NCBI GenBank assembly: GCA_050287085.1
Contig: JBNKBE010000001.1
Coordinates: forward strand, 128,001-192,000
DNA length: 64,000 nt
Source: Polyangiaceae bacterium
GTDB taxonomy: Bacteria; Myxococcota_A; Polyangia; Polyangiales; Polyangiaceae
Direction of reading: 5' to 3'
How positions within the stretch are numbered: position 1 is the stretch's first letter; every line of letters begins with the position of its first letter. The notes below the pieces were generated by a model that did no database searches, was not told the origin of the DNA, and saw nothing but the letters and a program-made list of their open reading frames with translations. The position numbers and the translations under genes are program-made. This document shows positions 2,878 through 15,300 of the stretch, piece after piece.

Positions 2878-3705
2878 ATGCATAGCAGCGAGTTCTTGAA
2901 TCTCATGGCAACCCTAGCCCCGCTCGAGCTGGCCGCCTCTTGGGACAACGTGGGGGTGATCGTAGACGCTGCCGAAGAGCGCGACGTGCGCCGCGTCCTG
3001 CTCACGATCGACATGACGGAACACGTTCTGGCCGAGGCGCTCGATTTCGGCGCTGAGGCAATCATTGCCTATCACCCCCCCATATTCAGCGGGCTCAAAC
3101 GCCTTGAACGAACCACTGCCGCAGGGCGCCTGCACCTCGCTCTCATTCGCTCTGGGATATTGGTCTACAGTCCCCACACCGCGCTTGATGCGTGCCGCGG
3201 AGGACTCAACGACTGGCTAGCGGGACTCCTGCCCAAGTCGCTCGCGCGACCGCTCGACCCCCTCCCGGCTCAACCCGAGCTTGGACAGGGCCGTTTCCTC
3301 GAGCTTCAAACGCCCCATTCTCTGGACGCATTGATCACTCTACTCAAGAGCCAGCTTCACCTTGACTACCTCCGTGTCGCTCGCGCGGCTCGCCACAGCT
3401 CCGCTAGCAGCACCCCCTCCAGGCCGGCAACGCCTAATGCCGCGAACGAGCTCATCGCCACGGTGGCGCTCTGTCCTGGCGCCGGCGGCAGTGTGCTTGC
3501 CAACACCAATGCCGACCTCCTGCTCACCGGAGAGATGCGCCATCACGATGTGCTCGCTCATCAGCGCGCCGGCCGGAGTGTGTTGCTGACCGAGCATACC
3601 GGCACGGAGCGGGGTTACCTTCCCGTCCTTGCGGCTCGCCTTGAGACGCTGGGGCTTCTATGCCGCGTCTCAAGGTCCGATCGCGAACCGCTAGAGCTCG
3701 CGTGA
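2878..3705 (+). CDS. Nif3-like dinuclear metal centre protein (YbgI family)
   Basis: LAPLELAASWDNVG, YHPPIF, YSPHTALD, TGEMRHH, EHTGTER motifs. Confidence 0.92.
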   Translation: MHSSEFLNLMATLAPLELAASWDNVGVIVDAAEERDVRRVLLTIDMTEHVLAEALDFGAEAIIAYHPPIFSGLKRLERTTAAGRLHLALIRSGILVYSPHTALDACRGGLNDWLAGLLPKSLARPLDPLPAQPELGQGRFLELQTPHSLDALITLLKSQLHLDYLRVARAARHSSASSTPSRPATPNAANELIATVALCPGAGGSVLANTNADLLLTGEMRHHDVLAHQRAGRSVLLTEHTGTERGYLPVLAARLETLGLLCRVSRSDREPLELA

Positions 3706-11527: not shown

Positions 11528-11657
11528 GGCCCCAAGGTGCGCGGACGCAACGGCTACGCTGCAGCCGGCAGTGACGTCGCATGCGCCAGACGCCAGCGGC
11601 CAGCCACCACGACGACGGTTGCGGAGTTGTTGCGCCACGTCTATAAGCGGCTTTTCG

Positions 11658-12662
11658 ATGTCGAATCAGAAGAAAGTTGCGCTTTCAGCTGTCCAGCCCA
11701 CCAACGCGATGACTCTGGGCAACTACGTCGGTGCCATGCGCCATTGGACACGACTCCAAGATCAATACGACAACATCTTCTTTGCCGTCGATCAGCACGC
11801 CATCACGCTGCGCCAGGACCCCAAGTCGCTCGGCGAGCAGAGCTACTTGATGATGGCCACCCTGCTCGCTGCGGGACTGGATCCGAAGGCAAGTCTGCTC
11901 TTTCTGCAGTCACACGTCCCGGAACACTCTCAGCTCGCGTGGGTTCTCGGCTGCAACGCCTACATGGGCGAACTGAGCCGGATGACCCAGTTCAAGGACA
12001 AAAGCGCCAAGGTGGGGGCCAACATTCCCGTTGGACTGTTTACCTATCCCATTCTGATGGCGGCCGACATCCTGCTCTACAGGGCCGATGTCATCCCGGT
12101 TGGACACGACCAGACCCAACACGTCGAATTGACGCGAGACATCGCCGTCCGGATGAACAACGCGTACGGAACGGATCTGTTCACCGTGCCTGAGCCGCTC
12201 ATTCCTAAGGTTGGAGCCCGCATCATGAGCCTCCAGAACCCAGACAAGAAGATGAGCAAGAGCGACCCGGACCCCAAGGCCACCATCTTCTTGACGGACT
12301 CGGACAAGACGATCGCTAAGAAAGTTAAGAGTGCCGTAACGGACTCGGGCAACGTAATCGAGTTCAGCGAAGAAAAACCGGGGATCAGAAATCTGATCAG
12401 CATCCAGAGCGCCCTCAGCGATCGGTCTCCCGAAGAAGTCGTTGCGGACTATCGGGGCAAACAATACGGCCATCTCAAGGTGGACACGGCTGAGCTGGTG
12501 GTCGGACACATCGCGCCGATCCGCAACGAGGCCGCACGCTTGCTAGCGGACCGACCCTACCTAGACAAGGTAATGAAAGAAGGTTCGGAGCGCGCCCGCC
12601 AACGCGCACAAGCGACGCTGAGACGCGTCTTCGATGCGGTCGGCTTCGTGTCCCCGACATGA
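11658..12662 (+). CDS. trpS: Tryptophan--tRNA ligase
   Basis: QPT..MTLGNY, VDQHAIT, QSHVPEH, YPILMAADIL, PVGHDQTQHVE, KMSKSD. Confidence 0.97.
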   Translation: MSNQKKVALSAVQPTNAMTLGNYVGAMRHWTRLQDQYDNIFFAVDQHAITLRQDPKSLGEQSYLMMATLLAAGLDPKASLLFLQSHVPEHSQLAWVLGCNAYMGELSRMTQFKDKSAKVGANIPVGLFTYPILMAADILLYRADVIPVGHDQTQHVELTRDIAVRMNNAYGTDLFTVPEPLIPKVGARIMSLQNPDKKMSKSDPDPKATIFLTDSDKTIAKKVKSAVTDSGNVIEFSEEKPGIRNLISIQSALSDRSPEEVVADYRGKQYGHLKVDTAELVVGHIAPIRNEAARLLADRPYLDKVMKEGSERARQRAQATLRRVFDAVGFVSPT

Positions 12663-14416
12663 AACTCGTGACCCCAGACGCATCGGAACTCGCGCTAGTC
12701 GCAACGCGTCCCGTGGGTCACGGCACCGAGAGCATGACACCAAGGCCGTCGCAACAGATCGATCTGCTCTTTGAAGAACCCGAGAACCGGATTGCACTGG
12801 CGACCGCGTTCGAATCCCTCTCCTTCGCGTTCGCTTCTGGCGACACTGACAACCTTTTCGAGCGGGTACTGGACTCGGCCCAAACGGCGCATGGAACCTT
12901 CGAAGCAGAGTCTTTCGCGCACGACTTATTCTTGCACTCGTTCATCGAGCGTTGCCTCCGCGTCTCGATTGGACGTGAGAGCTACAAGATTTCCACCGCC
13001 TACGTGCATACGATACTGAGCAGCCCCCCGGAGCTCTACGCGACGACGCAGTTTCGACAGCGCATCACAGAGGAGCTTCAGGACCCCCCAACGCTCGAAC
13101 AGTTCGAAGTTTGCTACCTTGCGATGCGTCGCGTGCGCGATCTGCTGAGCGCCGGCGGAGTGCAGCCACGTTACGAACGAACCCAGCGCCGCTTCGACAT
13201 CCTGACAGCGATTCGAGACCTGTTCCGCTGCCTCGAACGGTGCTTTGAGACGGCCGCAAGCGGCCTTGCGCAACTGCGCGAGTATGGACGACAGGTCTGC
13301 AGCAGCAATGCCTTTGCCCGGCTGGAACAGCTACTCGAGTACGAAGAGCGACTCGCCACGCTCGACATCCGCGTGCAGGTGGGACGCGACGGCCAGATCC
13401 GGAGCTTCGTTCTCCGACAGGTGAACGAAAACGTCGGCAACATCTACTATCAAGGCGCCTGGGCGCGGCTGACCACTCGCCTGCAACTGCTGTTTCGCGG
13501 CTTTCGTTTGGGACGAGAAGAACTTCTTGTTCGCCTCACCGATCACATCTTCGATAGCCTGCGCAGCCATCTCGTATCGGTGTTTCAGCTTATCGGCGAC
13601 ATGGAGTTCTACCTGGCAGGGGTGGGGCTTGCGAAACTCGCACGCCAACAGGGCTTGGCCGTATGTCTGCCGGAGTTTGGAAGACCGACGGTCCCAGGTT
13701 CGCACTACAAGGCGCTTTTCAACCCGTTCCTCGTGGCAGCCGGCAACGTGGTCACGTGTGCCGATATCTCCAGCTCAGCCGAACGCCCGCTCGTGGTGGT
13801 GACAGGCCCCAATTCCGGAGGTAAGACACGCCTGATGCAGGCGCTGGGTCTTAGCCAGCTCCTGGGACAAGGTGGCCTGTGGGTGCCCGCTCAAGAAGCT
13901 CACTTGCCGTGGTGCAGCGGCATGTTCGTTTCGCTGCTCAGCGAGCACAGCGCCGAACAGGCGGAAGGGCGACTGGGCATGGAACTGCTTCGGATCAGAA
14001 AGCTCTTCGAGCGCATCGCAACGGGAGATCTGGTGATCGTCGATGAACTCTGTTCCGGGACCAATCCTTCAGAAGGCGAAGAGATCTTCTGCTTGGTCGT
14101 CGAATTGCTCGCCAAGCTTCAGCCAAATCTTTGGCTAACAACCCACTTCTTGGCCCTGGCGGGCCGGCTGCAGACCTCTGCCTCCCCAGCTGAACTCGAT
14201 TTCCTACAGGTTGAACTCGATCCCCAGGGTCAGCCCACCTATCGCTTCGTAGCCGGAGTCGCCAAGACCTCCCTGGCGTCCCACACCGCGCAGCGCCTGG
14301 GAGTCACGGCAACGGAACTTAACCGCTTGGTCGCGGAAGCCAAAGCGCGAGGCGATCGACGACAGCCCATTGCGGCGCGCGCCCGGCGCCCGCTGGGAGC
14401 GCTGCACGACGCATGA
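12659..14416 (+). CDS. MutS-related ATPase (domain V, no mismatch-binding domain I)
   Basis: Walker A GPNSGGKT, Walker B IVDELCSGTN..EG, TTHF. Overlaps the trpS stop (ATGA); alternative start at 12734. Confidence 0.8.
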   Translation: MKLVTPDASELALVATRPVGHGTESMTPRPSQQIDLLFEEPENRIALATAFESLSFAFASGDTDNLFERVLDSAQTAHGTFEAESFAHDLFLHSFIERCLRVSIGRESYKISTAYVHTILSSPPELYATTQFRQRITEELQDPPTLEQFEVCYLAMRRVRDLLSAGGVQPRYERTQRRFDILTAIRDLFRCLERCFETAASGLAQLREYGRQVCSSNAFARLEQLLEYEERLATLDIRVQVGRDGQIRSFVLRQVNENVGNIYYQGAWARLTTRLQLLFRGFRLGREELLVRLTDHIFDSLRSHLVSVFQLIGDMEFYLAGVGLAKLARQQGLAVCLPEFGRPTVPGSHYKALFNPFLVAAGNVVTCADISSSAERPLVVVTGPNSGGKTRLMQALGLSQLLGQGGLWVPAQEAHLPWCSGMFVSLLSEHSAEQAEGRLGMELLRIRKLFERIATGDLVIVDELCSGTNPSEGEEIFCLVVELLAKLQPNLWLTTHFLALAGRLQTSASPAELDFLQVELDPQGQPTYRFVAGVAKTSLASHTAQRLGVTATELNRLVAEAKARGDRRQPIAARARRPLGALHDA

Positions 14417-14494
14417 TTGCAAGCAAGCTGTGCAAATATGCAAACCAGGCACTCCAACTCTATCGCAAGTAGCGATAATCACTTACGTGATCTC

Positions 14495-14510
14495 TGGCCC
14501 GGAGCTTGCA
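14495..14510 (+). promoter_or_regulatory. Putative sigma-54 (-24/-12) promoter
   Basis: TGGCCCG-GAGC-TTGCA matches TGGCACG-N4-TTGCW with one mismatch and exact GG-N10-GC spacing. AT-rich upstream DNA includes the inverted repeat TATCGC-aagta-GCGATA (14461-14477). Confidence 0.7.
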
Positions 14511-14520
14511 TATACCGCCC

Positions 14521-14624
14521 CCAACGGCAAGCCGCGTCGGCGGCCATCTCTCCCGTGCCAACTCAGCGCGGGTGGCGCATACCTCCCTCCCTCCCCCTTT
14601 TGCGTCGCCCGCGCTCCTAATTTG
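14521..14624 (+). ncRNA. Candidate sigma-54-dependent small RNA with C/U-rich loop
   Basis: Hairpin GCCGC-gtcg-GCGGC (14531-14544). A 15-bp stem (14565-14579/14601-14615) with two G.U pairs encloses UACCUCCCUCCCUCCCCCUUU. No credible plus-strand CDS follows the promoter. Ends are approximate. Confidence 0.5.
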
Positions 14625-14643
14625 TCCCCGGAAGCCACACCGT

Positions 14644-14708
14644 TGGTTCCGCCTGGTGGTTGAACCTGGTGGCTGAACCTAGTGGTTGAACCTAGTGGTT
14701 CCGCCTAG
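14644..14708. repeat. Five tandem 13-bp repeats
   Basis: tggttccgcctgg / tggttgaacctgg / tggctgaacctag / tggttgaacctag / tggttccgcctag. Confidence 0.9.
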
Positions 14709-14760
14709 AATTACGGGCTGCGGATGGGAACGACAGTCGTAAGCCGGTCGAGGCCGCCGC

Positions 14761-14850
14761 AAGTGGACGAGTGAGGAGCGAGCGCCGCAGGGCTACCGGA
14801 GTAGCTCGAGAAGCACAGCGACGAGCCCGCCACAGCAAGCGGAGCGGCTG
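14761..14850. repeat. Dispersed REP-like intergenic repeat, copy 1 (block A then block B)
   Basis: Block A (14761-14810) matches 19975-20024 at 44/50 positions. Block B (14811-14850) resembles 19925-19970. Internal GCTAC-cgga-GTAGC hairpin. Confidence 0.8.
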
Positions 14851-14906
14851 GCGTGGTGTGGCTCTCCCATCCCGCGGGCCCTGACCAACGCCGCCAACAT
14901 TGGCCG

Positions 14907-15224
14907 TCAGAAGGCCTCGAGGAGGGTGCGGCACTTCCAACATAGCTCAAAGTTGGACGGGTTGAGCTCATCGCACACAGGGCACCTGATCGAGTCAGCC
15001 AGCACCGCACGGGATGCTTGTTTGAACTCCTCAAGAACAGAGATCGCGTGCTTCCAGCGGATGGGTTCGGTGATGCAGACGATCGGACGTACCGTCAGGG
15101 GTAGTTCCCCAAGACACCCCTGAAGACTCGAGTTCTGCACGTAGGTGCGGATCCCTCGCTCCGCGAGCCTGTCGACGAGTAGCTGAGCCTCCTGTAAGCT
15201 CTCCGCTTCGTACAACGCGCGCAT
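14907..15224 (-). CDS. DUF2007 (putative signal transducing) protein with C-terminal zinc ribbon
   Basis: LYEAESLQEAQLLVDRLAERGI N-terminus; CPVCDELNPSNFELCWKC. Confidence 0.82.
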   Translation of the reverse strand: MRALYEAESLQEAQLLVDRLAERGIRTYVQNSSLQGCLGELPLTVRPIVCITEPIRWKHAISVLEEFKQASRAVLADSIRCPVCDELNPSNFELCWKCRTLLEAF

Positions 15225-15300
15225 GGCGCCACCATGCGCCATGCGCCATGAAAGTGCCAAGCCACGTGCCACCGGTCACAGCCGGATGAGCGGCCAAAAG

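Follow-up and report, generated by a model that had tools for sequence, protein, structure and literature searches.

The DNA analysed here, referred to as the window, is a 64,000-nucleotide stretch of a Polyangiaceae genome. A 490-bp intergenic gap in it (14417-14906) is flanked by convergent genes, the upstream one of which sits 3′ of trpS. From the sequence of this gap, an earlier note had proposed an orphan sigma-54 promoter driving an unannotated small RNA with an anti-Shine-Dalgarno (SD) loop. The features of the locus are listed below in window coordinates.

12659-14416, + strand: gene of a MutS_V-domain protein (Pfam PF00488), the upstream neighbour, with no functional tie to the RNA
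14409-14422, + strand: distal enhancer site, a weaker palindrome match (7.2 bits) that overlaps the mutS-like stop codon
14430-14443, + strand: proximal enhancer site (15.4 bits), 65 nt ahead of the -24 element, where a PxrR orthologue is predicted to bind
14466-14480, + strand: AT-rich element with AAGT at -28, which departs from the family beyond AAGT and which we take to be possibly an IHF-type bending site
14495-14510, + strand: sigma-54 -24/-12 promoter TGGCCCG-N4-TTGCA, read from the sequence; the motif is conserved upstream of family loci
14521-14625, + strand: predicted small RNA of about 105 nt, both ends being estimates; based on the fold (z-score -5.35 for 14520-14624) and on family lengths
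14526-14559, + strand: variable 5′ stem-loop domain from folding prediction, with an inner 5-bp hairpin (14531-14544) and an outer 4-bp stem
14565-14615, + strand: C-loop module, a 15-bp stem with a 21-nt pyrimidine loop (predicted seed), from fold and covariation
14616-14625, + strand: weak U-rich tail, poorer in U than the terminator tail of the family that it resembles; similar tails occur at other members
14907-15272, - strand: gene of a DUF2007/DUF7577 protein (domain annotation), the convergent downstream neighbour

The near-perfect -24/-12 element claimed for the gap is present at 14495-14510, and a relaxed form of the motif, TGGC[AC]CG-N4-TTGC[AT], occurs just 9 times in the whole 6.2-Mb genome. 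Position 5 of the promoter is C rather than A, a minority state in the family (9/106). The genome contains one rpoN gene, 30 sigma-54 activator domains (E below 1e-20) and one CsrA, and no match to Hfq was found in it (96.8% completeness). An inverted repeat does exist in the AT-rich DNA upstream of the promoter (14461-14491), as had been noted, but it lies off the conserved position and was rejected as the enhancer; the conserved sites are 14409-14422 and 14430-14443.

The reported lack of a credible plus-strand coding sequence held up under a hexamer model trained on the genome, which gave negative scores to the three long open reading frames lying mostly inside the gap. A fourth long frame, largely antisense to the mutS-like gene, scored +7.5, and the flanking genes scored +24 to +216. 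A small protein was also considered and rejected, as there was no coding signal and a minus-strand 5-codon frame with an SD sequence needs bases that are missing from other copies.

Folding reproduced a 5-bp hairpin followed by a 15-bp stem, in which 14565-14579 pairs with 14601-14615. The enclosed 21-nt loop (14580-14600) has the sequence quoted previously, and all of its bases are predicted to be unpaired. The structure is strand-specific: the folding z-score for 14560-14620 was -7.08 on the + strand versus -1.69 on the - strand, where both G.U pairs of the stem turn into mismatches. CCUCC, complementary to GGAGG, is present three times in the loop. A terminator scan called none at the tail of the window RNA. 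The promoter at 14495-14510 and the 15-bp stem with its C-rich loop are thus confirmed as real and strand-specific. Searching the window against Rfam yielded nothing at gathering level and chance matches only, up to E 10.

Several other elements were seen near these genes. In the window, trpS overlaps the gene of a 585-aa protein that has only the MutS_V domain (11571-14416), and this pairing recurs at at least eight loci of relatives. A second mutS-like paralogue (G000:C15:104940-106562, G000 being this genome) is present in this and most genomes of the genus. REP-like repeated long palindromic units, unrelated to the RNA family, lie 3′ of a mutS-like paralogue at L034 (~3400-3560). Directly downstream of the RNA is a 13-bp tandem repeat (14652-14700, 3.8 copies, 91% matches).

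A family of predicted RNA genes in Polyangiaceae

The element is not an orphan, because the genome holds three further loci, making four copies in total. A weak BLAST match led to the first of them, and a structural scan returned 18 matches, six of which have stems of at least 12 bp and pyrimidine loops. The paralogues are as follows.

G000:C1:486042-486491: paralogue 1, a sigma-54 motif followed by four C-loop hairpins
C7:183602-183761: paralogue 2, a sigma-54 motif with two hairpins and U runs
G000:C8:236168-236225, - strand: paralogue 3, one hairpin without a sigma-54 motif

The stems of the window copy and the paralogues have diverged, and their differences preserve pairing. Upstream of the C7 copy there is another, different short tandem repeat. 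Paralogue 3 is not the only hairpin that lacks the sigma-54 motif (L061, L080, L122, L125 and L142 do as well), and some of the motif-less copies have sigma-70-like hexamers upstream, which suggests rewiring to another promoter type.

A covariance model built from eight hairpins of this genome (R1) was run on the other 17 genus genomes. At E up to 0.5 it matched 16 of them, and 13 still matched at E below 1e-4; several loci per genome and tandem copies were frequent. At E up to 0.001, R1 matched 19 of 149 genomes of the family. A broader model (R2) matched 43 of 51 near-complete Polyangiaceae genomes and, in three sister families, 5/18, 1/1 and 3/6 genomes, with weak matches farther out. In one genus, copies of the RNA were present in all 14 large genomes, almost every one of them a single contig.

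The promoter accompanies the hairpins. Among 69 family loci (four of them from this genome), 65 had enough upstream DNA, and a sigma-54 motif (at least 10/12 positions) occurred within 260 nt upstream in 48 of these 65 versus none of 65 on the reverse strand; the motif was also found at 13 of 19 loci from other genera. For the top 29 loci of R2, the promoter was present in 23 versus 4/29 controls. When all species genomes were scanned with a hairpin-only pattern, of which the promoter was not part and to which some of the scanned genomes had contributed, 20 of the 43 matches had a sigma-54 promoter, and all 20 were labelled Polyangiaceae, Myxococcales or unplaced delta/proteobacteria. None of the 20 hairpin matches in unrelated taxa had the promoter, nor did three more Polyangiales matches, one of which was truncated upstream. 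The pattern also matched once in viral contigs (L276).

The stems covary, which bears on the covariation proposed earlier as a check. When 84 distinct hairpins were aligned to the model, 95.1% of cells could pair, versus 75.0% after shuffling and 29-50% after sliding, and compensatory changes were seen at 13 of 13 modelled pairs. Because this alignment is biased toward the model, model-free alignments were added. Fifteen genus members gave three hairpins with 35 pairs, 21 of them compensatory, and showed a weakly conserved 5′ hairpin ahead of the C-loop hairpins. In a mixed alignment of 10 sequences with the window copy among them, loops of unequal length misaligned, so that just the outer 8 pairs came out, 4 of them compensatory.

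Module number varies among the members. Of 84 curated loci, 82 could be parsed, with one module in 26, two in 42 and three to seven in 14. A U run follows the last module at 69/84 loci, and transcript lengths cluster near 55, 105 and 150 nt. At one locus (L145/L165, G042:C149), one sigma-54 promoter is followed by at least five C-loop hairpins with U runs between them. Adjacent genes are unrelated between family loci, and all four gene orientations are present.

The neighbourhood of the window copy itself is not conserved. BLAST of 14420-14710 against 40 relatives produced short matches only (E 0.005-0.09), mostly to the promoter or the 5′ part, and the element is missing from eight orthologous trpS-mutS-like loci. 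Looking downstream of these genes in relatives, as suggested earlier, turned up no syntenic element; two apparent matches there (L011, L034) proved to be false positives. Promoter and stem are conserved elsewhere in the relatives' genomes. The earlier note had named, as the reading that would undo its proposal, a hairpin that is only a terminator of the mutS-like mRNA. Such a terminator, or a repeated extragenic palindrome of the trpS-mutS-like operon beside a chance promoter match, would suit the position between convergent genes and the terminator-like last hairpin of the family with its U run at 69 loci. However, the spacing at which promoter and enhancer recur is fixed, and in an uncurated set of 77 promoter-plus-hairpin entries the upstream gene is oriented away from the element 43 times. 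The genome has four loci only, with diverged and compensated stems. Since the eight orthologous operons lack the element, it is not the terminator of that operon, and we consider this explanation extremely improbable.

Taken together, these loci make up an uncatalogued family of predicted small RNA genes that is conserved in Sorangium-type myxobacteria. That the window contains a real, conserved regulatory RNA gene is, in our judgement, highly probable. There is strong support for reading it as a non-coding RNA gene under sigma-54 and enhancer control: many genera, and loci with unrelated neighbouring genes, share the promoter, the enhancer, the covarying stem and the U-run end.

Twin enhancer and the PxrR orthologue

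The enhancer is a twin palindrome, TTKCA-N4-TGMAA. In 104 promoter-aligned upstream sequences, an uncurated set with some false positives and duplicates, T[TG]CA-N4-TG[AC]A occurred in 54 versus 1.2 in shuffled sequences, clustering at -67..-63 with a second cluster near -84. In a curated set of 79 loci, the proximal site (-67..-61) was present in 43 and the distal site (-88..-82) in 23, versus 0-2 in seven control windows; both this set and the scoring matrix exclude the genome's own loci. The AT-rich element also recurs: AAGT[CA]...GA was found in 17 of the 104 promoters, mostly at -28/-29, versus 1.6 in shuffled sequences. The enhancer-plus-promoter pattern was present in two of five further genomes.

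When the genome's 319 promoter-like sites were ranked, the proximal site of the window came first. The other two copies with sigma-54 promoters ranked 2 and 4, and the site at rank 3 apparently lies in coding DNA. The enhancer in this genome marks almost only these RNA genes. As a negative control, we took an unrelated sigma-factor gene whose sigma-54 promoter is conserved and found the enhancer at 0 of 20 of these promoters (best score 3.4 bits). The copy of this gene at C31:16621 was accordingly rejected as co-regulated: 20 of 24 loci of relatives keep the promoter, but it comes without the enhancer. The gene (G000:C31:16582-17442; L278-L301) belongs to the sigma-70 family and is FliA-like by our reading. 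Several of its promoters have another palindrome, GGTCA-N4-TGACC-like, near -70.

The high score of the enhancer also bears on whether the window copy is functional. A family member that is weakly expressed, decaying as a duplicate or read through into the convergent gene would explain why it is not syntenic in the eight orthologous loci and has no BLAST-level relative in 40 genomes, and it would fit the weak U tail and the minority C at promoter position 5. Against such decay stand the top enhancer score in the genome, the perfect 15-bp stem, paralogue differences that keep pairing, and an intact loop. We regard a decaying or poorly expressed copy as very unlikely.

Among myxobacterial regulatory RNAs the best known is Pxr, which acts as a gate on fruiting-body development in Myxococcus; it is processed to long and short forms and blocks development. 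The earlier note had compared the window RNA with Pxr, and the comparison proved stronger than had been recognised there, as the two share the enhancer and the genome has an orthologue of the activator PxrR. Six metagenome loci were fetched with the Pxr loop motif, five of which pass the Pxr model with 111-127 bits. The Polyangiales enhancer is matched two or three times at each of the six, with the best sites, in the main cluster, at 15.8-23.4 bits; in the background of the matrix, 16 bits occurs at 2.5e-6 per base. A stretch similar to the AAGT element precedes the pxr promoters as well. The sixth RNA (L237:1859-1983, - strand), which lies next to pxrR and has the SL1 loop motif and the twin enhancer with a sub-threshold Pxr score, is a divergent Pxr and a possible intermediate.

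With PxrR from a metagenome locus as the query, the orthologue G000:C8:99035-100435 was the one clear best match in the genome, at 54% identity and 411 bits; the runner-up scored 322. A quickly built tree with 33 activators, from which 4 of the 30 genome activators were left out, placed this orthologue with five PxrR sequences (SH-aLRT 100), and its recognition helix is near-identical to that of PxrR. At E below 1e-11, orthologues of the helix-turn-helix were present in 48 of 51 Polyangiaceae and throughout two sister families (18/18 and 6/6 genomes); beyond the order, a single genome had one. The activator is commoner than the RNA, since in family f9 the orthologue occurs in 18/18 genomes and R2 in 5/18. 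None of 30 orthologue loci had the RNA beside the gene, and no clear PxrK was found. Upstream of the pxrR orthologue there is a direct repeat of a G-rich 15-mer (G000:C8:98920-98950) that is not conserved in other orthologue leaders. Feedback of the RNA on this leader was considered and dropped, as G-rich stretches occur in some leaders inconsistently. In the literature searched, we found no PxrR binding motif and no report of PxrR binding to TTKCA-N4-TGMAA.

Loop, targets and proposed action

As originally proposed, the loop has an anti-SD character. CCUCC is present in the window loop and in 113 of 163 modules with closing bases counted, but the most constant feature is the C run, with C5 in 132/163. 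In the predicted loops alone (n=172), C6 occurred in 131 and CCUCC in 54, and family loops are mostly U-C6-8-UC. Both commonplace SD sequences and leaders with G runs could thus be partners of the loop. Around the starts of 4795 crudely called genes, GGAGG peaks at -12 (65 versus a background of about 5), and G5 runs near start sites are weakly enriched (13-16 versus about 8). The target prediction that had been recommended was run as a genome-wide duplex scan of this single genome and returned no specific target set. Because its result was unspecific, base-pairing repression is only something we infer. Of the earlier description as an enhancer-controlled translational regulator, the sigma-54, enhancer and non-coding parts are supported, and translational repression has this lesser standing.

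In the mechanism that we propose, a phosphorylated PxrR-type activator (G000:C8:99035-100435) would bind the sites at 14409 and 14430 and open the sigma-54 promoter. Transcription would start near 14521-14522 and end in the U-rich tail near 14625, giving an RNA of ~105 nt. The rigid stem would present the loop, whose strong G-C pairs to GGAGG or G-run leaders would need no Hfq. The copies may be additive or redundant, as are the Vibrio Qrr RNAs under LuxO, and by analogy to Pxr the output could be a switch between growth and development. We give a probability of roughly two-thirds to this whole chain, namely a PxrR- and sigma-54-driven, Hfq-independent base-pairing repressor whose loop pairs with ribosome-binding sites.

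The same gene and promoter could instead produce a protein sponge whose C-rich loops titrate a poly-C-binding protein, much as CsrB and CrcZ titrate their proteins. Module number per transcript ranges from 1 to 7, loop length varies widely, the C run is steadier than CCUCC, and the target search gave no specific target, all of which a sponge would explain. However, many members have a single loop on an RNA of roughly 55 nt, which would make a poor sponge. CsrA is present in the genome and its motif is GGA, but GGA would be on the opposite strand; a CsrA sponge was rejected because the GGA repeats are on the strand opposite to the promoter. Pxr, moreover, is reported to contact mRNAs near the SD sequence: a preprint figure legend places it near the SD of several mRNAs in M. 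xanthus, which lacks Hfq (10.1101/2025.09.11.675593). We find a sponge unlikely.

Relationship to Pxr and to other regulatory RNAs

The RNA is neither Rfam Pxr nor cuckoo, yet it is wired like Pxr. With Pxr (RF01812, gathering threshold 80 bits), no match was obtained in the window, in its own genome or in 123 genomes, a phylum sample that seemingly holds no Pxr-bearing genome. In the reverse direction, R2 scored only 16-20 bits on pxr loci, mostly from the terminator hairpin. Like the Pxr/PxrK/PxrR (Nla19) system of Myxococcus xanthus, the family has a sigma-54 promoter, a twin palindromic enhancer and an orthologous NtrC-like activator, and like Pxr the RNA has a long stem with a U-C6-8 loop, a U-run end and a length of about 105 nt and occurs in a genome with no Hfq match. 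The SL1 loop of Pxr is U-C7-A in the Rfam consensus, and a C-to-A change at its fifth base is reported to abolish function (PMC5684412). Each of the Cystobacter pxr paralogues is reported to have its own sigma-54 promoter (PMC5568312).

The two RNAs also differ. Of the three stem-loops of Pxr, SL1 carries the C-rich loop. In the window copy, which is built from two domains, the C loop comes last, and in common relatives it is the second and third of three hairpins that have C loops; across the family the C loop lies in terminal or repeated hairpins, with 1-7 modules. Pxr sits immediately 3′ of pxrK-pxrR, whereas the Polyangiaceae copies are dispersed over the genome with no linkage to the activator gene. 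Their enhancer sites, at -65 and -86, are closer to the promoter than those of Pxr (-81 to -152). Finally, the family occurs in Polyangiales, where Pxr is reported absent.

Other known RNAs share parts of this design. The sub-threshold Rfam matches at relatives' loci were to ar7 (up to 30 bits versus a threshold of 60) and CcsR1 (23 versus 65). Like the cuckoo RNAs (CcsR1/RSs0680, ar14/NfeR1) and ar7, the family has modular hairpins, variable compensated stems and C-rich anti-SD-like loops. The cuckoo trait of 2-4 adjacent variable-stem hairpins is found in many relatives, and the window copy has a single module. Unlike cuckoo RNAs, the window loop lacks the exact CCUCCUCCC motif and has CCUCCC repeats instead, and unlike the alphaproteobacterial cuckoo and ar7 RNAs the family has longer stems, lies in a different phylum and uses a sigma-54 promoter with a PxrR-type enhancer. 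Both the Rfam scores and the alphaproteobacterial range thus place it outside cuckoo and ar7. The C-rich loops in a high-GC organism recall the 6C RNA of Actinobacteria, from which the family differs in lineage, in promoter type and in having no Rfam match; 6C loops are reported to contact mRNAs without RNA chaperones (PMC6486639).

As with Qrr1-4 under LuxO in Vibrio cholerae, scattered sigma-54 small RNA genes appear to be served by one nearly dedicated activator. Qrr RNAs need Hfq and are not known to have poly-C loops. The spacer in the Polyangiaceae enhancer is 4 nt versus 3 in the LuxO site TTGCA-N3-TGCAA, and LuxO ChIP peaks numbered only 5, 4 of them at qrr genes, according to PMC10328515.

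The window RNA is probably a distant relative of Pxr. For its origin, two histories were weighed. It is about as likely as not that a module of PxrR, enhancer, sigma-54 and poly-C loop is ancestral to both big myxobacterial lineages, with Pxr as one branch of an old family. As part of the same history, and held no more firmly, the family would have expanded in Polyangiales into a Qrr-like scattered modular set under one dedicated activator, with TTKCA-N4-TGMAA as the PxrR site. Alternatively, and concerning origin only, the Polyangiales RNAs would have arisen independently of Pxr at promoters under an ancestral PxrR-type activator, and the C-rich loop would be convergent. The RNAs have no alignable homology to Pxr, pxrK-pxrR synteny is lacking, the weak Rfam matches are to ar7 and CcsR1 rather than Pxr, and C-rich loops are reported to have arisen repeatedly (PMC4615179). 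Independent origin has to be set against the same twin enhancer, AAGT element and sigma factor, an orthologous activator, a U-C6-8 loop on the same stem type, and an enhancer that in this genome marks almost only these RNA genes. We give it somewhat less than even odds.

In the literature searched, including the available portions of PMC11928866 and PMC10217877, we found no description of the RNA family, and Chen et al. 2019, on how Pxr-pathway genes are distributed, may already report pxrR orthologues in the lineage. Pxr has been described as restricted to Cystobacterineae, with a de novo origin there (PMC5568312, PMC5684412, PMC8538405). This view is challenged by finding, in the second major lineage, a family that shares the enhancer and the loop type and has an orthologous activator, and if the ancestral history is true, Pxr is no recent de novo invention of Cystobacterineae. 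The analysis also supplies a testable PxrR binding motif, indicates the C run as the conserved seed, and may open a likely global regulator to genetics in antibiotic-producing myxobacteria.
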